This document shows positions 14 to 19,038 of a stretch of 64,000 nucleotides of DNA, one piece after another. The stretch spans positions 22,993 through 86,992 of IMG/VR virus record IMGVR_UViG_3300032038_000047; one strand, given 5' to 3'. Source of the DNA: a virus (lineage: Duplodnaviria; Heunggongvirae; Uroviricota; Caudoviricetes). The notes below the pieces were generated by a model that made no database searches, was not told where the DNA came from, and saw only the letters and a program-made list of their open reading frames with translations. A program made the translations under genes and the position numbers. The stretch's first letter is position 1, and each line of letters starts with the position of its first letter.

Positions 14-3000
14 ATGTTCGTCAAGATTGGAGCCGCGCTGCTTCTTGTGGCGCTCGCCGTCGGGGTGCTATCTATTATTCCGACAGCCAGAATGGAACCG
101 GCTATGCGGGCGCTTGCTATATTCGCTGCTGTAGTTGGCGTTATTGTAGCTATTATTGTTGGGCTTGCTTCCCACATGAATTACGCCTCGTTTGAGTCAG
201 CAGCATCTGTTGTCAAAGCGGCGGGCAATGCCTTTGTAAAGATTGGGGCGGCTTTGCTTATCATGGCCCTCTCGATCGCTATCCTGTCAATTGTTCCTAC
301 CGACCAAATGCAGCCTGCGGCAATTGCACTTGGCATTCTTGCCGGCGTTATCGGAGCAATCATGATTGCTATCACGGCAATTGCAGCGCATTCTAACGGC
401 ACGAGCGATGTAGCAGCGTCTTTGACTGCGGCCAGTACCGGTTTCGTCAAAATGGCAGCAGCAATTCTGATCATTGCCGGAGCGATTGCGTTGCTATCCA
501 ATTTTGGCGGATCCAACATGCTGGCTGCAGCAGGAGTAATCGCCGGTTTAGCCGCCGGTCTTGGGATAATGATAGGCATCCTATCCACACTAGATGCCGA
601 CGGGCTACAGACTGCCGCACAGACGTTCATTCTGGCGGCAACAGCATTCTTAATTATTGCGGCAGCGGTTGTGGTCCTCGGCTATGCGATGTCGCAGTTT
701 GAATCAGTTGGTCAGTTTGCTCTGGCTATTTTCACACTGGTTGGGGCGCTTGTAGCCCTAATGGCTGTTGTTGGTGTTATCGCATTTCTTAGCACTCAGG
801 TTCCCGGACTCAGCATGGCTCTGAGCGCCGTTGCTGATATTCTGATGATCATTGCCATGGCGTTCCTGGCTGCCGGTGTTGGTGTGCTTGCATTTTCTGT
901 TGGTATTCAGTTGCTTGCCAACAACACGCAAGCAATCCCGGCGGTGCTTTCCGCCATTGGGCAAGGCCTCCATATGATGGCCACTTACATCAAAAACGAT
1001 AAGGGCGAACTTGCAATCTTTGCCCTTGTGTTGGCAGGTGTAGGTGTCGCCTGCGCTGGACTTGCAAAGCTTGTTGCAGCTCTGGCCCCTGTGTTCAGCA
1101 CATTTGTAGAGCAGCTTGGGACCATTCTTAACACAGTTGTTACCGCAGTTATCAATGGCGTAGATAAGCTGGTCACGGCAGTTGGTAACGGACTTGGCAA
1201 GCTAATCTCGTTAATCGGTAGCCATCTGCCATCCTTGAAAACACTTCTGATTGCTGGCGCTGCCCTGCTGATTACCGGGTTCCTTGAGTTTATAACTGGA
1301 GCCATGGGAGATCTGGTGAACAGTATTGTAAAGCTTCTCATTGTGGGTATCAATAGTATCTCTATTGCGATCATTGACAATGGGGAACAGATTGGCGCGG
1401 CAATCGGCAACTTGCTTGAAGCGCTTGGGCTGCTGGTCTTGAATGGGATTAAGGGCCTTCTTGAAAGTTGGAATATTCCGACTGGATGGATGGACGACAT
1501 GTTCAATCTTGACGGAGCAAACAGTCTCGTTCTTGGACATCTTCGTGAAAATAACGAGAAACTCAACAGTGAAGTCAAAGAGACCATGTCCGGCGTCGAA
1601 GAGACCGCAAAAAATGGGCTGAAGAGCATTGGTAACACTGTTGCTGATGGCGCTGACGGATTGTTTGGTAAAGCAGGGACCGTTGCGACCGATGATATTC
1701 ATTCTGCCGGCACTGCTGTAAAGAACGAGATCACCAAAACCGGCAAGGAAATCGATGAACTCAGGCAGGAGCAGTTTGACCGCAACCGGCGCAATACTGT
1801 AGATGCTATTGACAAAACTGGCGAAACAATCGAACGAAATGTCGACGGCAGCATTATTAAACCCGCCCAGAAGAAAGCAATGGAAGCGGCGGGATTGATT
1901 TCCGATGCCGGAACAGGCAGTATATCAGCGAAGATCAAAGAGCTCGGCCTGAACTACAAAGATATGCAGTCCTGGGCAAACGAGTACTTTGACGGCAACA
2001 TTCAGAAAGCCACCGAGTTTGCAGAGGCGCTGGACCGCCTTAACAGCAGTACCGAAGGGCTTAAATGGTGGGCTGACAATTACTTTAATGGTGATGTTTC
2101 TGCCGCTATGGAACAGGGCCTTGCCAACCTGCAAGCTACCGGAAAAGTAACGGCGGACAGTTGGGAAGAAGCCGCTAATAATCTCAAGGCCTACCGTGGA
2201 GAAGGCGCGGATATTTCCGACAGCGTTGCTTATGCCAATGCCGGTAAAGCGGACGGAGAGGCGTATGGTAACAACTTTATTGACGCCTTCCAGGGCCTCA
2301 TGGCAGGAGAAGGTATTTCCGGGAGTACCCTTCTTGGAGATATGGACATGGGCCAGCTGGGCGACATGCTCAGCGGTGCCGGACTAAGCTTTGACGCCGA
2401 CAGCCTGGACTTGTCCAATATCTCCGAGGTGCTAACCGAAAACGGCTTTGACCTCCCGCTTACAGGTGTGGATTTCTCAAATCTGTCGCTGGATGAACTC
2501 ATGGCGTATATGAGTGACGTCGGAACGGATGCTGGAGAAACCGCGGGCGAGGAAGCCGTCAACACCGCTGCAGAGAACATCGCCGGCAGTTCTGGAGAGT
2601 TGGCAGCAGCTACCAACGCCGCCGCGTCTGAGGCGACCGTAGAGAACATGGAAGCCATCAAGACCAGTGCGGAAGAAGCCACCGCTGCGGCAGAGACGGC
2701 AACCGCTGCTTCCGAAACAGCTACCGCTGCGGCAGAGACTGCAACTACAGCAATGGAAACGGAAGCTACCGCCGCACAAGGAACCCAGACCGCAGCTGAA
2801 GCGGCCATGGCTGCCATGGATACGGCATCTGAGCAAGCTGCGGTGTCCGGATCGGCTATGATGATGGCGTATATCAGCGGTATTAATAAAAACAGTTCTA
2901 TTGTTGTTACTACTGTAGCGAACGTCGCGCAGGCAGCCGTTAATAAGCTCTCAAGTTTCCGACAGAATTTCTACAACACTGGTTTGAATCTTGGTCAGGG

Positions 3001-3631
3001 ACTAATTGATGGTTTGCAGGCAAAACAAAGTGAGGCTGAAACTGCCGGATACAACTATGGTAAAGCAACCGCGGATGCAGTAGCGAGAGGTGCAGACACA
3101 GCATCTCCTTCTAAAGCAACAATGCTTACCGGTAAATACATTGGCGAGGGGCTTATCATTGGTATGCGGCGTATGGCATCAAACGTGTCTGCTACGGGAG
3201 AGAAAATCGGTTCTTTGGCCGTTAACGCCATGCAGTCGACCATTGAACGAATTCGCGGTATTATTGACGGGACACTTGAGGTCGACCCTACCATCCGTCC
3301 TGTTTTGGATATGTCAAATGTTACTGCCGGAGCAATGGCAATGAACGGGCTGTTTGGGAACCCGAGTATGTCGTTGTCCAGCGCAAACCTTAGTGCAATT
3401 CGGTCTTTGTCCGGTCTTTCTATTGGCTCACAGCCAGCCTCTGCAGTGGCCGGAAGCAACGCCGATATCATAAGCGCCATCCGCGAAATGAGAGGGGACA
3501 TTGATCAGCTCGGCGACCGCATCAGCCAAATGCGCATCGTGATGGACTCCGGCGAGCTTGTCGGATCTATCGGAACCAAAATGGACCGCCGGCTCGGTGA
3601 GATTGCCAAACACAAAAGTCGCGGTAACTAA
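14..3631 (+). CDS. Tail tape measure protein. The ORF is open to the window edge, so it is probably 5'-truncated
   Basis: 1205 aa. Hydrophobic TM-like segments at the N-terminus. Long Ala/Gly/Ile-rich low-complexity stretches and an internal ETATAA(A) tandem repeat region near nt 2690-2790. The position directly upstream of the Dit/Tal-like genes fits a siphovirus TMP. Confidence 0.8.
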   Translation: MFVKIGAALLLVALAVGVLSIIPTARMEPAMRALAIFAAVVGVIVAIIVGLASHMNYASFESAASVVKAAGNAFVKIGAALLIMALSIAILSIVPTDQMQPAAIALGILAGVIGAIMIAITAIAAHSNGTSDVAASLTAASTGFVKMAAAILIIAGAIALLSNFGGSNMLAAAGVIAGLAAGLGIMIGILSTLDADGLQTAAQTFILAATAFLIIAAAVVVLGYAMSQFESVGQFALAIFTLVGALVALMAVVGVIAFLSTQVPGLSMALSAVADILMIIAMAFLAAGVGVLAFSVGIQLLANNTQAIPAVLSAIGQGLHMMATYIKNDKGELAIFALVLAGVGVACAGLAKLVAALAPVFSTFVEQLGTILNTVVTAVINGVDKLVTAVGNGLGKLISLIGSHLPSLKTLLIAGAALLITGFLEFITGAMGDLVNSIVKLLIVGINSISIAIIDNGEQIGAAIGNLLEALGLLVLNGIKGLLESWNIPTGWMDDMFNLDGANSLVLGHLRENNEKLNSEVKETMSGVEETAKNGLKSIGNTVADGADGLFGKAGTVATDDIHSAGTAVKNEITKTGKEIDELRQEQFDRNRRNTVDAIDKTGETIERNVDGSIIKPAQKKAMEAAGLISDAGTGSISAKIKELGLNYKDMQSWANEYFDGNIQKATEFAEALDRLNSSTEGLKWWADNYFNGDVSAAMEQGLANLQATGKVTADSWEEAANNLKAYRGEGADISDSVAYANAGKADGEAYGNNFIDAFQGLMAGEGISGSTLLGDMDMGQLGDMLSGAGLSFDADSLDLSNISEVLTENGFDLPLTGVDFSNLSLDELMAYMSDVGTDAGETAGEEAVNTAAENIAGSSGELAAATNAAASEATVENMEAIKTSAEEATAAAETATAASETATAAAETATTAMETEATAAQGTQTAAEAAMAAMDTASEQAAVSGSAMMMAYISGINKNSSIVVTTVANVAQAAVNKLSSFRQNFYNTGLNLGQGLIDGLQAKQSEAETAGYNYGKATADAVARGADTASPSKATMLTGKYIGEGLIIGMRRMASNVSATGEKIGSLAVNAMQSTIERIRGIIDGTLEVDPTIRPVLDMSNVTAGAMAMNGLFGNPSMSLSSANLSAIRSLSGLSIGSQPASAVAGSNADIISAIREMRGDIDQLGDRISQMRIVMDSGELVGSIGTKMDRRLGEIAKHKSRGN

Positions 3632-3640
3632 ACAAAAACG

Positions 3641-3687
3641 ACCCGGTCTGTTGGCTACTACTCAGCTTTCAGACCGGGCTATTTTAC
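3641..3687 (+). terminator. Rho-independent terminator after the TMP gene
   Basis: GC hairpin CCCGGTCTG...CAGACCGGG followed by CTATTTT. Confidence 0.6.
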
Positions 3688-3721
3688 TGAACAACCACAA
3701 ATTCAAAATGGGAGGAACCCA

Positions 3722-5122
3722 ATGTATCATTCGATCTATTTCGCTCCGTCGCCAGAGGTGTTTCAGTCTGGTATTATCGACAAGAACGAGACGGACAGGC
3801 AAAAAGTTATAGACATCTGGGAAGATTGGCACCTGGTTTCCTCCTCGCGTCCGCTGTTCCTTCCTCCGAAACTTAAAGACAGCTACGTAGATATTCCGGG
3901 TGGAGATGGAGCACTGGATCTTTCCGAGGTGCTAACCGGAACGCCTGTATACAGCAACCGAACCGGAAGCTGGGATTTGTACGTCATGAATGGCTACTGG
4001 GATTGGGTTGATGCATATTCCACCATCATGAACTATCTTCACGGACAGCGCATGTACGCGATTCTCGAAGATGATAAGGCCCATTACTACGAGGGCCGGT
4101 TCACAGTGAATACGTGGAGGAGCGATCCGAGCTACAGTAGAATTACCATTAACTATAACGTTGACCCTTATAAATATACGGTCCTTCAGAATGAATGGTA
4201 CTGGAATCCCTTTGATTTCGGGGCGCCTTTAGACGACAACATCAATACGGACGCAGATTACGGTCAATGGCTAGAGGCCAATAGAAAAGGCAACACTGCT
4301 TTGATGGGCCATACATATCACCATGAGAATACCATTAACGGCGTGGACCTGCTTAGCCCAGAGAACGAGAGCACAGCTCGGATAAGCGCTAATGATTTCC
4401 AACTCGCTTTCGGCGGCGGCGCCATCCCAGATTATCAAAACATGACCGTTGCTGGAACGCTTGAGACCGTAGTTAAGGGTATTGGTAAAAAGATTACGCC
4501 GACATTTGAAGCTGCTCTTCCAAGCACTACAGTAAACAGCGTAACGTACGTAGACACATGGAATTACAGTGGTTTGAACGGAAAGACACACGTCGGTTGG
4601 CAGACGCAGAGCCAAGCCGAAGATTTTAGGGTGGGCGACTATGCTCCAGTAAAACCAGCCGAAACTATATCCGAAGGTATGCTTCAGAGTGCAACACTAT
4701 ATCTGACAATCGACGGAACCACCTACACTATTCCTCTACATACGGAGGCAAATGACAGCCTCAATTCTGGGGCCTATGCACTTTTTGGGACGGTACCTAA
4801 TACGGATCCGACGCCGAAAGTAAAGCCATATGTAATCTGCGTTCCAAACGAGCTATCCGATACACCTGCCGGAACATATTTTAAAAGGGAGTCTGGCGAT
4901 ACCTGGACAAAAGCAGAACTAACCTGGACGCAGACCCCCGACACAACATACGGAGTCACTGTCCAGCAGATCTACCCGGATGGAACCAGCACGGAGCGTT
5001 TTCAGATCCCGTATGGAGGAAAAGTCTATATTCCAGGAATCCTAATCGTTGACGGTGCTAATACACTTATTTTCAGGGGCTGTGGAACAGTGACCATGAA
5101 CTACAGAGGAGCAAGCCTGTAA
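3722..5122 (+). CDS. Distal tail protein (Dit)-like, phage tail family protein
   Basis: 466 aa ORF immediately downstream of the TMP, which is the conserved siphovirus gene order. Its RBS lies in the AATTCAAAATGGGAGG element. Confidence 0.5.
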   Translation: MYHSIYFAPSPEVFQSGIIDKNETDRQKVIDIWEDWHLVSSSRPLFLPPKLKDSYVDIPGGDGALDLSEVLTGTPVYSNRTGSWDLYVMNGYWDWVDAYSTIMNYLHGQRMYAILEDDKAHYYEGRFTVNTWRSDPSYSRITINYNVDPYKYTVLQNEWYWNPFDFGAPLDDNINTDADYGQWLEANRKGNTALMGHTYHHENTINGVDLLSPENESTARISANDFQLAFGGGAIPDYQNMTVAGTLETVVKGIGKKITPTFEAALPSTTVNSVTYVDTWNYSGLNGKTHVGWQTQSQAEDFRVGDYAPVKPAETISEGMLQSATLYLTIDGTTYTIPLHTEANDSLNSGAYALFGTVPNTDPTPKVKPYVICVPNELSDTPAGTYFKRESGDTWTKAELTWTQTPDTTYGVTVQQIYPDGTSTERFQIPYGGKVYIPGILIVDGANTLIFRGCGTVTMNYRGASL

Positions 5123-6360
5123 TGTATTACATCTATATAGACAATCTGTCATGGGACAGTGCGGGCAATTTAAAACCACATCAGGAGCGGTTAATGTATA
5201 TGCCAGGCGTGGACGACCTGCTTGTGCTGAATCCGAAGCTCACGATGGAATTAAACAAGGCCGGTTCTCTGGAATTCAAAATGCCATATAACCATATCAT
5301 GCTGGAGGATCTTCATGAGCTTCGATCCAACGTAATTGTTCGGAGAGACCGGCGGACCATCTGGAAAGGGCGCGTCACCAAAATCGATCGCGATTTTTAC
5401 AAAAATGCCAGTGTTTACTGCGAAGGGGCGCTCGCGTTTCTTAATGATACGTTGGTTCCTCCTTACGAGTATAAAGAAACTACAACTACCGTTGCGCAAT
5501 TATTTGAATATTTCATTACACAACATGTGATAGAAGCTTCCGAGGGACGTAAAATCCAATTAGCAACCCCTTCTTGCGATGTCACCAAAGTGTCCTGGGA
5601 GGTAGAGCATTATCCGGAGCTGGTAATACCCGAGGGCAGCACCGGTGATGAGACCCACGTCATTGACCCAAACGACACGGAGATCAAAGTCGAAAACAAG
5701 TCATATCCTCAGACTCTGGAAGAACTGACGAGCGTTCTTGTAGATGAGTATGGTGGATATTTGTATCTGACATATGGCGCAAATGACAAGTACTATCTGG
5801 GCTATTACCAAAAGTATGGCGGATCCGAACAGAGAAGATCCCGACAGAAGATCATGTTCGGAATCAACCTGCTGGACTTCTCAGAAAGTCAAAGTGCGGA
5901 AGATCTCTTTACCCGTATCCGTCCCATCGGCGCTTCCGATCTTGCAACGGATCCTGCGGTTATTGAGAATAAGACCGCCATGCAGGAGTACGGGAAAATC
6001 ACCCGCACCGAAACGTGGAACGATATTGAAGATGCTAACGAGCTTCTTCGCAAGGGACGGAAACGGCTGCTTGAGGGGTCGCGCATCAGTCAGACGATTG
6101 CGATTAAGGCAGTTGACCTGCAATTGCTTCGGCCTGACGAGGAGGACGAGATCGAGCTTGGCGATAAAGTCGGCGTGTTCTCAGCTCCGCACGGTATCAA
6201 TCAGGAGTATATTTGTTCCCAGATCATTATCGATCTGCAGGATCCATCTAACACAGAGTACGTGTTCGGAGACGTATATACATCACTTACCGGCACACGG
6301 GTTTCCGGAGATACTTCCTCCGTCGTGCTGGACAATCAGGCTGAAACCCAGGAGTTTTAG
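5122..6360 (+). CDS. Tail-associated lysin / tail endopeptidase (Tal)-like protein
   Basis: 412 aa. Its start overlaps the stop of the Dit-like gene (ATGTAATG-style coupling). It sits at the third position of the TMP-Dit-Tal order. Confidence 0.45.
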   Translation: MYYIYIDNLSWDSAGNLKPHQERLMYMPGVDDLLVLNPKLTMELNKAGSLEFKMPYNHIMLEDLHELRSNVIVRRDRRTIWKGRVTKIDRDFYKNASVYCEGALAFLNDTLVPPYEYKETTTTVAQLFEYFITQHVIEASEGRKIQLATPSCDVTKVSWEVEHYPELVIPEGSTGDETHVIDPNDTEIKVENKSYPQTLEELTSVLVDEYGGYLYLTYGANDKYYLGYYQKYGGSEQRRSRQKIMFGINLLDFSESQSAEDLFTRIRPIGASDLATDPAVIENKTAMQEYGKITRTETWNDIEDANELLRKGRKRLLEGSRISQTIAIKAVDLQLLRPDEEDEIELGDKVGVFSAPHGINQEYICSQIIIDLQDPSNTEYVFGDVYTSLTGTRVSGDTSSVVLDNQAETQEF

Positions 6361-6393
6361 GGTTACGGCAATACGATGAAAGGAGAGTTGATT

Positions 6394-7083
6394 ATGGCTA
6401 ACATCACCAATGAACTCGACACAATCAGTTCAGGTGTATATGGCCGCGATATTAAAAGGGCTATTCATAGCGCTATCGACAAATTAAACCAAAACGGCAC
6501 AGAAGGTCTGTCTGATGCGGCTGCCAATGCGGCTGTAAGTGCCACCAAGTATCAGAGTATTGACAAGGCTTCTGCAGAAGGACAGGAGGCACTTAATTGG
6601 CTTGTAGAAAATGGGTTTATGCAGGGTGGAGAAGCGTTCACACCGATGAACAAAGACGTTGTCCGAGCATTTATTATTCTTAAACGTATGGGTCTCATCG
6701 GAAACGATGATTCACAGGGTGCCTCTGGGTATAAGATCTATACGTATTTCAGAGCGAGAGCAGACGCCAATGGCATCCCCCGATGGGCACAGCCAACCAT
6801 CTACAAGCTGATGCACAAAGTTGGCATAGATGGACATCCTTTGCTCCGTGGCGTAGACGATCCACTTACGTCAGACCCGGTGCTTGTTATTGGGGATGAC
6901 AACCAAGATTACCCATTCGTATATGATAAAACGCCTCTGTCCAGCTCGGAACAGCGTGGACTGTATAACATCAAACTGAATATTTCAAGCGAGATGCTCC
7001 GCACGCTGGTAATCATTGACCGGTCTGGTTATTTTGAGGATCTTGTTTGGACCTCGATAAATTGCGACGCTCAGCTGCCATAA
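6394..7083 (+). CDS. Hypothetical tail/baseplate-associated protein
   Basis: ORF with AAAGGAGAG RBS ahead of the ATG at 6394. The upstream M at 6376 lies inside the RBS. It sits within the tail module. Confidence 0.5.
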   Translation: MANITNELDTISSGVYGRDIKRAIHSAIDKLNQNGTEGLSDAAANAAVSATKYQSIDKASAEGQEALNWLVENGFMQGGEAFTPMNKDVVRAFIILKRMGLIGNDDSQGASGYKIYTYFRARADANGIPRWAQPTIYKLMHKVGIDGHPLLRGVDDPLTSDPVLVIGDDNQDYPFVYDKTPLSSSEQRGLYNIKLNISSEMLRTLVIIDRSGYFEDLVWTSINCDAQLP

Positions 7084-7098
7084 AGGACGTGATACACC

Positions 7099-7851
7099 AT
7101 GGCCAGATTAGTATGGGATCAGACGGCGGAACGGCTGTATGAGACCGGCGTCCGGTACTGCGTGGCGTATCCGTTTAACCGGAGCAGAGAGCATCCATAT
7201 TCTCCGGGTGTCGCATGGAATGGACTGACGGCAATCAAGCAGGACCCAAATGTCACGTTCAAGCCGATTTATGCAGACGACACCAAGTATTTGAATCTCC
7301 CCCATGAGTCTCTGAAGCTGAAAGTGGACGCCTATACCTATCCTGATACTATCGCCATCGCTGACGGTTCCGCTGATCTGGCACGGGGCCTTCGTCTTAG
7401 TCAGCAGCGGAGAAAGATATTTGGGCTCAGCTATGTATCCACGGTCGGAAATGACACAGAGCTCAACGACTATGGCTATAAGATTCATCTGATCTACGGA
7501 TGTATGGCCTCTCCGGTTGAGAAAGCGTTTTCGACCATAAATGACGGAATCGGGCCTGTGACATTTTCCTGGGACGTCATCACCAACCCCATTACACTGG
7601 AAGGATTCAAACCACTGTCGGTCATCACGGTTGACTCCGCTACCTGTGCACTGACTCCGGAAGGCCAATCCGGCCTTGTCAAGCTTCGGGATATTTTGTG
7701 GGGCACCGATACGACAGAACCATACCTTCCGCTGCCGTGGGAAGTGGTGGAGATATTTACGGCGAAGAAGTTCTATCTTGTGGATGAGCTTGATCAGATT
7801 CTTATGGATGAGGACGGAAACTTCTACATTGACGCTGATGGGGATTCGTGA
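7099..7851 (+). CDS. Hypothetical tail module protein
   Basis: 250 aa ORF co-directional with and tightly packed against the neighbouring tail genes. Confidence 0.5.
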   Translation: MARLVWDQTAERLYETGVRYCVAYPFNRSREHPYSPGVAWNGLTAIKQDPNVTFKPIYADDTKYLNLPHESLKLKVDAYTYPDTIAIADGSADLARGLRLSQQRRKIFGLSYVSTVGNDTELNDYGYKIHLIYGCMASPVEKAFSTINDGIGPVTFSWDVITNPITLEGFKPLSVITVDSATCALTPEGQSGLVKLRDILWGTDTTEPYLPLPWEVVEIFTAKKFYLVDELDQILMDEDGNFYIDADGDS

Positions 7852-7860
7852 GGTGAGGCA

Positions 7861-8055
7861 ATGAGCGATATTTATACTGCAGATAAAGAAACAGTCTCAG
7901 GCGTTGCACCGCACGACAAATACGTAATTGAGCAGGATAAAAAACTTCGCCTTATCACCAGAGAAGAAGCAGCTTTGGGAGAGAAAGGCGTGATTGCTGC
8001 ATGGTTAAATGACCGTGGAGAATTGCTGCTCCAACTGGGCGGAAAGGAGGACTGA
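7861..8055 (+). CDS. Small hypothetical protein
   Basis: 64 aa ORF with GGTGAGG RBS, tightly packed. Confidence 0.4.
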   Translation: MSDIYTADKETVSGVAPHDKYVIEQDKKLRLITREEAALGEKGVIAAWLNDRGELLLQLGGKED

Positions 8056-13436: not shown

Positions 13437-13709
13437 GTGCGCTACACAATTGACGGCAGTATTCTTACCGGAATTGCAGACGCTATCCGGAACAAGACAG
13501 GATCTGAGGCAGGCATCGCGCCGGTTAACATGGCGAACGAAATCGATAATATTCCGTCTGACATTGCTGGGGCTTTGTCTACGGCCCGCGCTATATTAGA
13601 CAACCAATTTATGGCCCGGATCCAAGGTGTCCTGTCAGCCGCCGAGATGGCCCAGTATCAGAATACCTGGGAATTGATTTACGCAGAACTTGGATTAGGA
13701 GGCGATTGA
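13437..13709 (+). CDS. Hypothetical protein
   Basis: 90 aa ORF with a GTG start, co-directional. Confidence 0.35.
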   Translation: MRYTIDGSILTGIADAIRNKTGSEAGIAPVNMANEIDNIPSDIAGALSTARAILDNQFMARIQGVLSAAEMAQYQNTWELIYAELGLGGD

Positions 13710-14323
13710 TAATGTCCGATTCTCATGTAGAGGAATACCTTAAGAAACTAAACGGTCAGGATGTCGATATCTCCTTTGAGCCGCAAAGTAATGTCGAGCT
13801 GTATCTCGCTAAAATGAACGGCATGAATGTACAGCTGCCGCCTGAGCCAGAAAGCAGAGTCGAGGCGCTTCTTGCCGACTATATTGAGTCTGGCGGGGGA
13901 GATACCGCCCCATCTATAACTCGAATCACAACAGCTTTTCGGAATTTTGATAGTGCACAATATATGAATACATATGGGATTGATGCCTTAACGTCATACT
14001 CGTTTGTCCCTATTGTTAATTATTTTGTGTCTTTGGGTACTACCGAAAATGAAGCAAAAATATGTACAGCGATTCTTGCGCTCATCTCTTGTCTTACGGA
14101 TTGTGAACATCTTCGTACGCAGCAACTTCAACAATACGTTATGAATTTCAAATCGGTAGTAAGCGATAATGTTATTGATGGCTATTTAGAGTCCATTCGT
14201 GGGTTCATTAAAACAAGCGACATCGCGTGGACTTATTTATGCGGTGCTGGAGATGCTCCAATTTGCGCAGAGCTAGCCGATGTAATTATATACACAGCTT
14301 CTCTATCAATCAATGATACTTAA
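13706..14323 (+). CDS. Hypothetical protein
   Basis: 205 aa ORF overlapping the previous stop, with an AGGAGG RBS. Confidence 0.45.
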   Translation: MIMSDSHVEEYLKKLNGQDVDISFEPQSNVELYLAKMNGMNVQLPPEPESRVEALLADYIESGGGDTAPSITRITTAFRNFDSAQYMNTYGIDALTSYSFVPIVNYFVSLGTTENEAKICTAILALISCLTDCEHLRTQQLQQYVMNFKSVVSDNVIDGYLESIRGFIKTSDIAWTYLCGAGDAPICAELADVIIYTASLSINDT

Positions 14324-14339
14324 GGGATGGTGTTTCAAC

Positions 14340-14666
14340 ATGACTAAATTTACAAAAGATTGGGCGACTGCAGCGCTGATCAGAGCTGCTAGAAGCTTTG
14401 CACAGGTGGCCTTGGGCGGCATCACCGTTGGGGCTGCACTGGATGAAGTAAATTGGATTCGTATCTTTTCCGTAGCCGCCGTTGCCGCAATCTATTCTAT
14501 TCTGACCAGCGTTGTTACAGGCTTGCCTGAAGCTAAAACTGACGGCACACTGATCGTCGACGACACGAATGGAGACACCACCAACTATCTCTTCCAGGTG
14601 GAGACACCGCTGGATGAGATGCAGACTAAGAAATCTGTACGGATGAACGTGGAGGTGCACAAATGA
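14340..14666 (+). CDS. Holin, phage LL-H family
   Basis: The N-terminus 'MTKFTKDWATAALIRAARSFAQVALGGITVG...' matches the Holin_LLH pattern (MxKFLKD..IRA.RT.AQTALA). There are two hydrophobic segments and the protein is about 108 aa. Confidence 0.75.
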   Translation: MTKFTKDWATAALIRAARSFAQVALGGITVGAALDEVNWIRIFSVAAVAAIYSILTSVVTGLPEAKTDGTLIVDDTNGDTTNYLFQVETPLDEMQTKKSVRMNVEVHK

Positions 14667-14827
14667 TCAATTTCGGAAAGGACGTGCCGTTTCAGAGAAT
14701 TCGGCGTATTACGGGGTATCTCACCGGAGACCTTTCAACATGGAATAACGCAAAGCAGGCGGAGGAGAAAGACCGGGTTACACACGGGATGCATGCTTCT
14801 GCCAAGAAAACTAACAACCCGGCCTGA
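14663..14827 (+). CDS. 54-aa ORF resembling the C-terminal glycyl-radical domain of anaerobic ribonucleotide reductase NrdD
   Basis: ATG overlaps the holin stop (ATGA). 'RRITGYLTGDLSTWNNAKQAEEKDRVTH' compares with the E. coli NrdD C-terminus 'RRVCGYLGSPDARPFNAGKQEEVKRRVKH', recalled from memory. It carries the class III RNR glycyl-radical motif R-x-[CT]-G-Y. Confidence 0.45.
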   Translation: MINFGKDVPFQRIRRITGYLTGDLSTWNNAKQAEEKDRVTHGMHASAKKTNNPA

Positions 14828-14868
14828 AAGCTCTGGTACAGCTCATAGGTCGGGTTGTAATCGATTGT

Positions 14869-15057
14869 CTACCCGTGGACGTATCTGGTTTTCACCTTGG
14901 TAGACTTTCCATCGGATACACTGGTAGTTACTTTGTATCCTCTGTGTGCGGGTTTCACCTTAACCCGAATTCTTTTTACAATTCTTTTCGCCATTCCTCC
15001 TTCACCTCCTCCTACATGGCCCGGCGGTGATACAAAGAGCAGTTTGATCTGGTCCAT
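14869..15057 (-). CDS. Small basic hypothetical protein
   Basis: 62 aa minus-strand ORF, Lys/Arg-rich, with a weak RBS. It diverges from the HTH gene that starts at 15204. Confidence 0.3.
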   Translation of the reverse strand: MDQIKLLFVSPPGHVGGGEGGMAKRIVKRIRVKVKPAHRGYKVTTSVSDGKSTKVKTRYVHG

Positions 15058-15203
15058 CTACTGAGCTCTTTGTGACTTACACATCTATTATATCATAGCA
15101 TTGACGATCTCTCAACATATAGCGCATATTATGGTCAGCTTTGTGACTTTTGCACAACATCTTGTAATGTTTTAACTAAACCAAAAGAAAGGGGCAAATC
15201 ATC

Positions 15204-15530
15204 ATGGCCAAGAAAGAAATCATTAAGGTACCCTTTAACCGAGAACGTCTGGAGCTGGCGATGACCAACTACGGCTACAGCTACAAGGCGCTCTCTAAAT
15301 ACTCCGGTGTTTCTGACACCAGCATCCGCAGAGGCGCAAAGGCCGGCGAGATCAACCGGGAGTTTGCCATCAAGATTGCAGAACAGCTCTGTGTCACCCT
15401 GGCGTTCCTGTCTGGTGACAAGAGCATGGACCGCATTGCCAAGGCATTCAAAACAGTTAACGCGTTCATGGACACCGCGCCCGAGCTGCTTCGGATGGAG
15501 ATCGACCCGACTGCAACCGCTGCGGAATAA
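15204..15530 (+). CDS. XRE-like helix-turn-helix DNA-binding protein
   Basis: 'YSYKALSKYSGVSDTSIRRGAKAGE' is an HTH-like segment. There is a good RBS (AAAGAAAGGGG). Confidence 0.5.
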   Translation: MAKKEIIKVPFNRERLELAMTNYGYSYKALSKYSGVSDTSIRRGAKAGEINREFAIKIAEQLCVTLAFLSGDKSMDRIAKAFKTVNAFMDTAPELLRMEIDPTATAAE

Positions 15531-15547
15531 TTCAAAATGGGAGGTAA

Positions 15548-16228
15548 ATGATTATGGGTGCGTCAATTCTTGACCGGCTCAACGAACGGAACGGCACTAC
15601 CGACCACACCATTGCCGGTGCACTGAAGAGCTACATCATTCGTAACGGCGGTGATCCTACAGGTCTCCAGAACATTGCGGATTTGGTGGCAGCGCTACCG
15701 GAGGGCGGTGGATCTGGCGGAGCAAAGGTTTACACGATTACTGGTACTGATCATAATAATTCCGTGGTCCCGGAGGGGTTTCCCACGTCGTTTAGCGTGA
15801 ATGATGTTGAAAACGGGGACGTGGGCCTTATGTTGGTTTTGCGAGAAGTGTATCAAAAAGACGAAACGGACGAGCCGAGGGAAACGGTGCAGGTTCATTG
15901 GTTTAGTGAACGCAACGAAGCCTTGGACTTCGTGTTTGGACAGGCATATAATATCAGTACAGGCAACCTGGGGTGCATGTCAGTTATGTCATGGAACAGA
16001 AATCTCGGAACATGCAAACTGACACAATGGCATGATGGATGGACAGACAGCGAGACAGACAATTACTCATACTACGATTATTTATTCGGCGATGAATTTG
16101 TACACAACGAAATGGGTGACGAATATTACCGTAACACACAAGAAGCTGAAATGTCTGGTGAGGAGTTCGTATTATACAATCACTCAGTCACATGGAAACT
16201 GGTAGTGTTTGACAATCGATCTGCATAA
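15548..16228 (+). CDS. Hypothetical acidic protein
   Basis: 226 aa ORF with a GGGAGG RBS inside the AATTCAAAATGGGAGG element. Confidence 0.5.
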   Translation: MIMGASILDRLNERNGTTDHTIAGALKSYIIRNGGDPTGLQNIADLVAALPEGGGSGGAKVYTITGTDHNNSVVPEGFPTSFSVNDVENGDVGLMLVLREVYQKDETDEPRETVQVHWFSERNEALDFVFGQAYNISTGNLGCMSVMSWNRNLGTCKLTQWHDGWTDSETDNYSYYDYLFGDEFVHNEMGDEYYRNTQEAEMSGEEFVLYNHSVTWKLVVFDNRSA

Positions 16229-17352: not shown

Positions 17353-17420
17353 AAAGAATGTAGTTTAATTGGTAAAACGCTACTTAGAGATGGAGGTTCA
17401 ACCCCTCCCATTCTTTTTTC
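17353..17420 (+). ncRNA. tRNA-like small RNA with acceptor stem, D-arm and T-arm but a truncated anticodon region
   Basis: AAGAATG pairs with CATTCTT as a 7-bp acceptor stem. There is U8 and a D-arm GTTT-AATTGGTA-AAAC. The T-arm GGAGG-TTCAACC-CCTCC is followed by TTTTTT. Only 12 nt remain where the anticodon arm and variable loop should be. Confidence 0.4.
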
Positions 17421-17789
17421 GTTTTGTCCGCAAATTTTACAGCCTCCTAGATGGAATAAACTATTAGGAGGTATGTGTATGTTCATAGATATTCTGATCG
17501 TGGTGCTTTGCATCGTGGTGGTCAAGAACATATTGGCGAAGTACATGTAAGCGAACGTGATATTCAGACTGGAAGGGTCCTGCGGGGCCTTTCCTTTTTA
17601 CAACGACTTTTCTTTTTTTTGAAATCGCAAAAATTCCCGGGTGGGGTTTTCCGAAAAAACAATTCTGAACTGGAGTTCATACTGTCCTTAGTATATGCCA
17701 TGAAATGTGCCACGGTGTTTACAGCCCTTGTGATACCAATGGGTTTGTAAAATAGAGAGAGTTTTCGAATCCCTCTCTCTCCGCCACTG

Positions 17790-17823
17790 GCCTCCCCTTG
17801 TGGGAGGCCTTTTTTGCGTTTTA
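17790..17823 (+). terminator. Rho-independent terminator
   Basis: GGCCTCCCC-TTGT-GGGAGGCC followed by TTTTTTG. Confidence 0.55.
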
Positions 17824-17967
17824 CCACGGTTTTACCCTGTTTTTGCAACTTATTTATGAGACTGAATTACCATATATTAGGCGCAAAACCCATGTTTGAT
17901 ACCCTCATATGCCACGAAATGTGACACGAGACCCCGAAAAATATGACACGAAAATCTGTCAAAAAGT

Positions 17968-19038
17968 TCAGACTTCTCCGGATTCTGATTTTTCATCTTT
18001 CAGCAGCTCAGCGAAGTACCGCTCAATTTCTGCATTTACCGCCTCTCTTTTTGCATCTGTGGTATGCTGGTAGATCCGTTTTAGAGTCTGGATCGACGAC
18101 CACCCGCCACGCTCCATGGCGTATTTGTCCGGAGTGCCGAGTTCCAACATGATAGAGGCGTTCTGATGCCGGAGGTCGTGCAAGCGCATATGCGGAAGCC
18201 CCTCCTCTTTACAGATCAGAGTGAGCCGCTTGCTTAGTGTGTTGGCGTGGACGTTGCAGAAAGGGATATTCCGTGTTACACACTCATCCAGTTTCAAAGC
18301 GAGATACGCAGGAACTGGGAGTGTACGCTTGGATTTCCTGGTTTTTGTAGTTTTGACCACAAACTCATGGTTCTCATTTGGGACTTTGGCCTTTGTTACG
18401 TGCAGGAGCTGCTTCTCGGAGTCCCAGTCACTATGCTCTAGCGCCAGTATTTCTGATCTGCGCAGCCCGAGGAACATCGCCAGCAGGACCGGAACCTCGA
18501 TGGATTCCCCATCCACTGCTCTGATCAGTTTTGCGCACTGGTCTTTATCCAGGATATTTCCCTCGAAATCCTCTGCTTGCGGCAGTGTGGCACGGATCTG
18601 GCGGCCACAGAACTGCTTTATTACTGCTGACAGAAGCCCTTTGACATTCGCAACGGTTTTGGGGCCGCTGGTCTTTGCCTCACGATTGATTGCCACCTGG
18701 GCTACATTATCGGTGATATTTCGGAGTTGCATGAGCATTTCCGGCTGCAGGTGGTTTTTCTTGATGTTTTTGTAGCCTCTGATCGTGGATGGGGACAACA
18801 CGTTGCTTTTCATGTTAATATATTTGGTGATGGCTTCTTCCAGAGTCATGGTGGATTGGTCGAGAATGGTTTCATGGTGCCGCTGGGCTAATTCACTGGC
18901 CAGGCGGATGCACTCATATTTATCAGGGCTGGTAACGCTCTGGTAGACGCTCTTTCCATTTTCGTCTTTTCCAAGATACACACGAAGTCTCCAGGTTCCT
19001 GATGGTAGTTGCGTTGGGTTCATGATATCTGCCTCCAT
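17968..19038 (-). CDS. int: Tyrosine-type site-specific integrase
   Basis: C-terminal catalytic region 'HMRLHDLRHQNASIMLELGTP...ERGGWSSIQTL.RIYQHT' carries the R..HxxR..Y signature of tyrosine recombinases. The N-terminal SAM-like/core-binding region is present. Confidence 0.85.
   Translation of the reverse strand: MEADIMNPTQLPSGTWRLRVYLGKDENGKSVYQSVTSPDKYECIRLASELAQRHHETILDQSTMTLEEAITKYINMKSNVLSPSTIRGYKNIKKNHLQPEMLMQLRNITDNVAQVAINREAKTSGPKTVANVKGLLSAVIKQFCGRQIRATLPQAEDFEGNILDKDQCAKLIRAVDGESIEVPVLLAMFLGLRRSEILALEHSDWDSEKQLLHVTKAKVPNENHEFVVKTTKTRKSKRTLPVPAYLALKLDECVTRNIPFCNVHANTLSKRLTLICKEEGLPHMRLHDLRHQNASIMLELGTPDKYAMERGGWSSIQTLKRIYQHTTDAKREAVNAEIERYFAELLKDEKSESGEV

Follow-up and report, generated by a model that had tools for sequence, protein, structure and literature searches.

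We conclude, as judged from its sequence, that a 54-codon open reading frame (ORF) in a temperate gut phage of the class Caudoviricetes is a true phage gene, translated into an autonomous glycyl-radical module of the type that ends NrdD, the class III (anaerobic) ribonucleotide reductase (RNR), cut exactly after the zinc (Zn) ribbon of that enzyme. The ORF lies at positions 14663 to 14827 of the stretch of DNA analyzed here, which we call the window and which comprises the first 64 kb of the 87-kb ENA metagenome contig ERZ27256903 k141_1652072 (IMG/VR record IMGVR_UViG_3300032038_000047). Oxygen destroys glycyl radical enzymes by cleaving them at the radical glycine, and the anaerobic ribonucleotide reductase is the source of all DNA precursors in strict anaerobes. 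On balance, and with modest confidence, we read the 54-amino-acid (aa) peptide as a putative glycyl-radical cofactor, a spare part or trans-acting subunit, for class III RNR.

The module and its family

The resemblance of the peptide to the C terminus of NrdD, on which the original prediction was built, is borne out by three kinds of comparison. Pfam NRDD (PF13597) matches it with an E value of 2e-8 and 33.8 bits (cut-off, 26.2), pairing residues 9 to 41 with profile positions 532 to 562 of 562. Two NCBIfam NrdD equivalogs match at E values of 1.8e-11 and 3.7e-11, over the last 33 to 35 model positions only, and their scores of 33 to 43 bits stand against cut-offs of 326 to 764. In PDB entry 8p23, the NrdD of Prevotella copri, chain residues 708 to 738 align with peptide residues 11 to 41, which lays RITGYL upon RITGYL. 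The glycyl radical domain of the P. copri enzyme (residues 676 to 739) consists of a Zn site, a buried loop with Gly711, a helix (723 to 730), and a tail (PMC11226230). Given this layout and a match confined to the C terminus, the peptide is the counterpart of the loop, helix, and tail and lacks the Zn site. Because of the profile and 8p23 alignments, we place Gly18 in register with the radical Gly711 (numbering of PMC11226230), in agreement with the earlier proposal that the glycine of ITGYL is the radical glycine.

The peptide retains the R-x-x-G-Y radical-glycine motif of NrdD (as RRITGYL) and the short helix that follows it, and the ten-stranded alpha/beta barrel and the catalytic cysteine loop of the enzyme are absent. 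It has no cysteine and thus no Zn ribbon, as had been noted at the outset; in full-length Clostridial NrdDs (..CPxCGRTEEDG[VI]PFQRIRRITGYL..), the position of its Met1 falls directly after the last cysteine of the ribbon. AlphaFold leaves the peptide alone unstructured save for a helix at residues 29 to 36, the equivalent of NrdD helix 723 to 730 (predicted local distance difference test score [pLDDT], 59.5). In a Pfam scan at E<=1, NRDD was the sole match to the peptide and Gly_radical (PF01228) did not match it; six other family members gave the same result. Lacking barrel and Zn site, the product is no NrdD enzyme, and lacking any match to PF01228, it is no member of the GrcA family.

The gene is real. 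Its 54 residues are those given in the original prediction. It has a Shine-Dalgarno (SD) sequence of its own (Table 1), to which that prediction did not refer, and the identical 54-aa protein occurs on four metagenome contigs in all, three of them beyond the source contig and with the same gene order, with no frameshift or stop in any of the four. Its ATG (14663 to 14665) overlaps the TGA of the upstream holin gene (14664 to 14666). This overlap had been taken to suggest translation, which is a reasonable argument, but the overlap is not conserved: two relatives with other upstream genes, on contigs L180 and L186, carry SD sequences of their own (GAAGGT and GGAGG, respectively).

Comparison with these two relatives marks the gene as a discrete unit. 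The sole block that the window shares with L180 in this stretch is 14661 to 14808, which is 96% identical and begins 2 nucleotides (nt) before the ATG. The flanks are swapped, in that a 199-aa gene without a Pfam match replaces the holin gene, 14809 to 15171 is missing, and in L180 a spacer of 28 nt separates the ORF from the start of the gene behind it. L186 represents a different temperate phage (SPP1-type holin, GH25 endolysin, and a metallophosphatase gene), in which a 54-aa homolog occupies the lysis-to-integrase interval and the downstream gene starts 2 nt past its stop. Over the 32-codon core, the window and L186 show 21.0 differences across 21.2 synonymous sites, versus 8.0 across 74.8 nonsynonymous sites. 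With synonymous sites saturated and the protein conserved, we conclude that the gene is under purifying selection. Between the window and L180, there are 4 synonymous differences and about 1 nonsynonymous difference. Residues R12, R14, I16, T17, G18, Y19, K31, E34, R38, and H41 are invariant in 86 family members.

The peptide is one member of a large family of modules that stand alone. An exhaustive HMMER scan of 1.84 billion representative proteins returned 1822 clusters at E<=1e-3. Among the best 150 of these 1822 representatives, 149 are 45 to 213 aa long (median, 70 aa), the Gly motif is present in 147, a Met start in 147, and an upstream CxxC in only 3. Every one of the 85 matches from a word-indexed protein search is 42 to 95 aa long. 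IMG/VR holds 147 relatives, the best 80 of which all lie in open frames of 50 to 154 codons, usually provided with an ATG and SD sequence, and the best 80 loci in GTDB comprise about 62 short frames (for the most part proteins of 87 to 92 aa) and 16 full-length NrdD genes. Of 133 distinct family frames, 97 begin at an in-frame ATG behind an SD sequence that matches in 5 bases or more; the corresponding share among all ATGs of these loci is 8.6%. We define the family by a Met start, a length of about 42 to 140 aa, the pattern F-x-R-[IV]-R-R-I-T-G-Y-L...K..E...R..H, at least 24 residues past the Gly and, usually, no Zn ribbon; the window peptide is, on this definition, a free-standing NrdD-type glycyl-radical mini-protein. 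The top HMMER match (P0121, 1817 aa) was rejected as an artifact, a translated tandem DNA repeat with about 30 copies of a 61-aa unit that lacks the Gly motif; its score is the sum of many weak matches.

The family takes two forms. Short peptides of about 42 to 70 aa are of the window type, and a few of them have a small Cys motif of their own (L023, L024, and L110). The second form, of 87 to 92 aa, has a Cys-free N-terminal domain, predicted to fold as beta-alpha-beta-beta (pLDDT about 80), and carries its Gly at residue 61 to 63. This longer form is common in the chromosomes of Ruminococcus, Faecalibacterium, Oscillospiraceae, and their relatives, and one such member occurs on more than 1000 contigs, one of them of 3.5 Mb. 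A Foldseek search of PDB with the model of a 92-aa member gave nothing at E<0.7, and the family profile run against PDB sequences matched the NrdD C terminus only. Members from cultured sources include WP_051540416.1 of Ruminococcus sp. FC2018 and CDE48171.1 of Faecalibacterium sp. CAG:74. Members that bear a name are almost always annotated as "hypothetical protein," and neither Pfam nor NCBIfam has a dedicated model for the mini-proteins. Going by the literature and the curated model libraries, this large family does not appear to have been described. One member weakly matched the NCBIfam model "FRAT-87 protein" (17.9 bits against a cut-off of 50); 61 other members did not repeat this match, the literature has nothing on that protein, and we put the match down to chance.

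One full-length NrdD frame, at 1795 to 4413 of locus L102 (Oscillospiraceae metagenome-assembled genome JAVBRS010000108.1), carries two tandem glycyl-radical modules in a single chain (..RVKHGLETGDDSTVGEGVPFERIRRITGYL..RVKH..). The second module may be a built-in spare or the result of fusion with a downstream module gene, or the arrangement may be an assembly error.

Two-piece NrdDs and orphan modules

In nature, NrdD also occurs in two pieces. In 26 of the 80 viral and 5 of the 80 genome loci, a module ORF follows an NrdD core that breaks off soon after the Zn ribbon and lacks the Gly motif, and the same split arrangement is found in loci L009 to L013. Several of the split cores have a similar tail (..GEAVSEEKLRQIKKN.., ..GDELTHDEIAKIRKQCR). 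They stop at TAG, TAA, or TGA, and the spacing between core and module varies from a 9-nt in-frame gap that contains the SD sequence, through overlapping frames, to about 1 kb. In every split locus, the module lies downstream of the core, on the same strand and within about 1.1 kb. Because stops and spacing vary in this way, recoding of the stop codon cannot explain all split NrdDs, and it was rejected as a general explanation (three stop codons, spacers of 9 nt to about 1 kb, and overlaps in different frames); read-through of an in-frame TAG may occasionally occur in the L011 and L027 groups. Since the only radical glycine of a split system sits on a separate polypeptide, the module can apparently be activated and used in trans. 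We regard the split systems as the strongest indirect evidence suggesting that a module of this kind acts in trans.

The arrangement of core and separate module also occurs in a cultured phage, EL753P1 of Eggerthella lenta. Its core is of the split type and contains a large mid-protein insertion. The module of this phage (L192, 3370 to 3584; OP172808.1, 6964 to 7178) appears frameshifted, consisting of an annotated 42-aa ORF that ends in ..FERIRRI and an unannotated frame (TGYLTGSADRWNDAKKAELRDRVKHGK); the break would be either a sequencing error or a real frameshift. In L009, L010, L012, and L013 (about 4868 to 7991), the core is interrupted further, into a 227-aa ATP-cone/NRDD piece, a 172-aa ORF, and a 526-aa NRDD piece, where L011 has a single uninterrupted gene of 747 aa. 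The pattern suggests that these cores, besides being split at the radical domain, received a mobile insertion of the type of an intron or homing endonuclease. In passages of a 2013 survey of phage RNR genes, introns, inteins, and homing endonucleases are held responsible for split genes; those passages do not mention one split at the radical domain.

Orphan modules are the majority. No NrdD core lies within 1.5 kb upstream in 45 to 54 of the 80 viral and 54 to 60 of the 80 bacterial occurrences, and the ORF of the window is one of these orphans. Viral orphans tend to adjoin endolysin or integrase genes, in the cargo region of temperate phages, and an integrase is present in 13 of 53 viral orphan loci versus 0 of 27 split loci. 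When the neighbors of 63 bacterial copies were clustered, no partner gene proved to be conserved beside the bacterial orphans.

In one group of temperate contigs (L052, L055, L065 to L067, L069, L081, and similar ones, at about 5840 to 7490), a module gene of about 89 aa lies between an amidase endolysin gene and the 3' end of the integrase gene. As it is only about 260 nt from that 3' end, the module gene of this group is beside the likely phage attachment site (attP).

In 5 of the 63 bacterial loci, a rubrerythrin-like gene lies about 1.5 kb from the module (8243 to 8791 in L139, and four related loci). Rubrerythrin is an oxidative-stress protein of anaerobes, and its proximity to the module is probably synteny among related Ruminococcus genomes.

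A predicted spare part and its alternatives

We infer that the peptide is activated by NrdG, that it docks on NrdD, and that the phage or its lysogen benefits. In the spare-part reading, the host activase NrdG would recognize the conserved RRITGY loop and install a radical on Gly18. The peptide would then insert this loop into the barrel of an NrdD core, beside the catalytic cysteine, and stand in for a radical domain that is missing, cleaved by oxygen, or displaced, with the effect that deoxynucleoside triphosphate (dNTP) synthesis in the anaerobic host would be restored or boosted. The window, its entire early and replication region included, holds no NrdD core or homolog, nor does it hold an NrdG-like ORF (CxxxCxxC radical S-adenosylmethionine motif, at least 100 aa). 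For this reason, the partner would be the NrdD of the host, and the ORF would be the NrdD counterpart of GrcA/YfiD and of Y06I of phage T4.

Several features support this role, namely a sequence that comprises the radical domain only, translation signals of its own, its discreteness as a module, the large family, the split enzymes, and purifying selection. Further support comes from the orphan position in the cargo region of a temperate phage, the lack of a core in the window, and the precedent of pyruvate formate-lyase (PFL). Spare parts are known only for formate lyases, and for other glycyl radical enzymes they are "yet to be determined" (June 2026 review, PMC13450708). The literature searched offers nothing of relevance on spare parts for NrdD or on prophages that target nrdD. 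The original prediction had offered, as one of two readings, a phage-encoded spare part analogous to GrcA/YfiD. What stands of it is a phage-encoded, free-standing radical-domain family with its own signals and under purifying selection, and the spare-part role, the better supported of those two readings, is a proposal along GrcA/YfiD lines.

Some observations weigh against the spare-part reading. A full-length host NrdD already has a radical domain, and a 54-aa peptide without a Zn ribbon would have to be activated and to compete with it for the barrel. The predicted disorder of the lone peptide fits a docking module and gives no positive support. Coupling to the holin gene suggests late expression, which is not obviously the time of peak dNTP need. 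The intact activase-recognition loop and the small size of the peptide would suit a decoy or inhibitor equally well, and a phage NrdD core could lie in the 16.7 kb of the 87-kb source contig (positions 70282 to 87012) that are outside the data.

The first alternative is a decoy or regulator, a module that is bound by NrdG or by the NrdD barrel without catalysis and so titrates the activase or blocks host NrdD. In this way it would hold back dNTP synthesis in the host, keep out superinfecting phages, or divert the installation of the radical. We consider this unlikely, though worth keeping in view: the activase-recognition loop is fully conserved while the preceding Zn ribbon is missing, the gene sits in the lysis-integrase cargo region, where genes for exclusion and conversion are common, and activation and inhibition are inseparable by sequence alone. 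However, split NrdDs have the same kind of module and, because it is their sole source of a radical glycine, it must be catalytically competent there. The orphans, moreover, keep the Gly and every residue that does not vary among the split and full-length enzymes, and a self-inhibitor is harder to rationalize for the 87- to 92-aa orphans, which are scattered across Clostridial chromosomes.

A second alternative, that the ORF is the functionless leftover of a two-piece nrdD cassette whose core was recently lost, strikes us as improbable. Split cassettes are common in related viral sequences, phage genomes are mosaic, and the divergence from L180 is too small for a strong test of selection. Against this stand the start codon and SD sequence, kept in three different upstream contexts, the block of homology with L180, which coincides with the ORF although both flanks are exchanged, and the four contigs without a frameshift or stop. 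The homolog in the unrelated phage of L186 has conserved its protein through saturated synonymous change, and orphans form the majority of both viral and bacterial occurrences.

We think it very improbable that the peptide is the small subunit of a two-piece phage NrdD whose core lies in those 16.7 kb of the source contig, which the window does not cover. The gap between core and module does reach about 1 kb in some split loci (L025 and L165), but the uncovered part is placed upstream of the genes for the tail chaperone and the tape measure and so corresponds to the head and packaging module. Split modules are always close behind their core on the same strand, the loci with an integrase never had a core, and the 64 kb that include the whole early and replication region have no NrdD homolog.

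Integration site, gene setting, and known counterparts

The remaining alternative, also raised in the original prediction, is that the ORF represents the 3' end of nrdD, placed at attP so that integration regenerates an intact host nrdD. The att core is, however, independent of the ORF. Contig L193, the one contig recovered from JGI metagenomes by the sequence at the break in L180, which is a tRNA 3' end (TTCGAAT-CCCTC-TCTCTCC-G-CCA, followed by a terminator hairpin), carries a bacterial gene for an ABC-transporter binding protein, an intact tRNA-Ser(GGA) called by ARAGORN, and then the region downstream of the integrase gene and the integrase C terminus; its phage part is 92.4% identical to 17764 to 18118 of the window. 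L180, with an ORF 93% identical to that of the window, resembles the window in blocks of 96 to 97% identity up to 17815 and then passes into a chromosomal nitroreductase gene. This flank is 89% identical to L190, a contig that bears chromosomal genes but none of phage origin; as a candidate for the empty bacterial site (attB), L190 has no tRNA and diverges past the nitroreductase gene. The left (attL, L193) and right (attR, L180) junctions have in common an exact core (Table 1) that consists of the last 23 nt of tRNA-Ser(GGA) (17764 to 17786; T loop, T stem, 3' strand of the acceptor, discriminator G, and CCA) and the terminator hairpin and that is separated from the integrase stop by 153 bp. 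Relatives of the integrase in IMG/VR are only 34 to 43% identical and gave no mapping of att sites.

Because these junctions share the same 52 bp, the att core is not at the holin/ORF junction near 14.66 kb, and the earlier suggestion of that location and of integration into nrdD is refuted. Nor is the core at the tRNA-like element (17354 to 17416). The ORF is 2.9 kb from the core and 2.7 kb inside the L180 prophage, between phage genes. A check of 80 genome loci for host nrdD ends that match the ORF as attB found no long DNA identity with bacterial nrdD (at best 88.6% over 35 nt, in L132), and the best DNA matches to the ORF are other mini-ORFs. Although a regenerated nrdD would explain why the ORF begins exactly at the end of the Zn ribbon and why it is found between the lysis genes and the integrase gene, an interval in which attP sites occur, we give it next to no credence and reject it, given the core in tRNA-Ser(GGA), the internal position in the prophage, the lack of nrdD identity, the SD and ATG of the ORF itself, and the N-terminal domain of the 87- to 92-aa relatives, which has no detected similarity to NrdD.

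Table 1. Positions in the window of the module gene and of features around it
Feature	Position	Strand	Basis or remark
r1t-type holin gene (called start 14340)	14313..14666	+	Pfam Phage_r1t_holin PF16945, E=4e-12
Shine-Dalgarno GGAGGTG	14651..14657	+	Read in sequence; 5 nt before ORF ATG, within 3' end of holin gene
Free-standing NrdD-type glycyl-radical module ORF (Gly loop, short helix, tail)	14663..14827	+	54 aa, ATG start; NrdD C-terminal matches
Conserved core F10-H41 (FQRIRRITGYLTGDLSTWNNAKQAEEKDRVTH)	14690..14785	+	Buried Gly loop and subsequent short helix; aligns with 8p23 chain 708-738
Gly18 codon GGG, predicted radical-bearing glycine	14714..14716	+	Alignment with P. copri NrdD radical Gly in RITGYL
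Stretch absent from relative L180 (363 nt)	14809..15171	.	Holds last 6 ORF codons and stop, promoter-like site, small basic ORF
attP core, 52 bp	17764..17815	+	Exact identity common to attL contig L193 and attR contig L180
Tyrosine integrase gene (called start 19023)	17968..19038	-	Pfam Phage_integrase on called gene

By its gene content, the window reads as part of a temperate siphovirus. Tape-measure and tail genes are followed by a CHAP/GH25 endolysin gene, the holin gene, the ORF, several small genes, the integrase gene on the minus strand, and the early genes. A blastn search with 13700 to 15600 found no match among 50,697 phage records, and tblastn against phage records returned chiefly full-length phage nrdD genes and unannotated fragments. 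An exact 42-nt probe from the ORF had no match in the JGI metagenomes.

The stretch that L180 lacks looks like a small inserted cassette. On its minus strand are a promoter close to consensus (15115 to 15087; TTGAGA-17-TATAAT with TG), a strong SD sequence, and a small basic ORF (..MAKRIVKRIRVKVKPAHRGYKVTTSVSDGKSTKVKTRYVHG, within the ORF at 14869 to 15057), and on its plus strand is a terminator-like hairpin (14949 to 14967). The tRNA-like element, on the plus strand, is 63 nt long and scores 52 bits against the Rfam tRNA model over its full length. Its anticodon arm is seemingly truncated, ARAGORN does not call it (or any other tRNA in the window), and it is kept inside the L180 prophage.

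With this ORF, a specific family of candidate spare parts for the anaerobic ribonucleotide reductase comes into view, and its members are abundant. We propose, as a matter that we hold to be evenly balanced, that class III RNR has a cofactor family of its own, which would be an obligatory second chain in many (likely virulent) phages and, as orphans in the chromosomes of Clostridia and in temperate gut phages such as this one, a set of replaceable radical cartridges for the host NrdD, used after oxygen damage. This would be the first spare-part system beyond PFL. If it is true, the view of NrdD activation and of recovery from oxygen in gut anaerobes changes, temperate gut phages have a new kind of auxiliary gene, the prophage cargo has a function in oxygen tolerance or dNTP supply, and enzymologists gain a minimal substrate for NrdG. 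Cultured material for the family is at hand in Ruminococcus sp. FC2018, Faecalibacterium sp. CAG:74, and Eggerthella lenta phage EL753P1.

Among known systems, the C-terminal domain of full-length NrdD (residues 676 to 739 in P. copri; also phage T4 NrdD) has the homologous Gly loop, a Tyr after the Gly, the helix, and the tail, and 31 residues of 8p23 align with the peptide. That domain has a Zn site and an attached barrel, whereas the peptide has neither and is encoded by a separate gene with its own ribosome-binding site. The two-piece NrdDs of viral contigs and of EL753P1 have, like the window, a module of 42 to 90 aa as an ORF of its own, and the modules of the L027 and L009 groups are 63 to 72% identical to the window peptide. 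Their core lies close upstream, whereas the window has a holin gene in that place and no core in its 64 kb. Among attP sites that copy the 3' end of a target gene, this phage has one, in the 23 nt of the tRNA-Ser 3' end, and the ORF, unlike such sites, is far from the crossover.

The Escherichia coli protein GrcA/YfiD and phage T4's Y06I are, like the product of the ORF, small, free-standing glycyl radical domains with a conserved Gly and a gene of their own, and Y06I is likewise encoded by a phage. Their radical Gly lies about 25 to 36 residues from the C terminus, as it does in the peptide. GrcA/YfiD differs in its parent enzyme (PFL rather than class III RNR), in its family (PF01228 rather than PF13597), in its motif (of the PFL type rather than RRITGYL), and in its length (127 aa rather than 54 aa). 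The logic that the two would share, as we propose by analogy, is that the activase of the parent enzyme charges the small protein, which then replaces a radical domain cleaved by oxygen.

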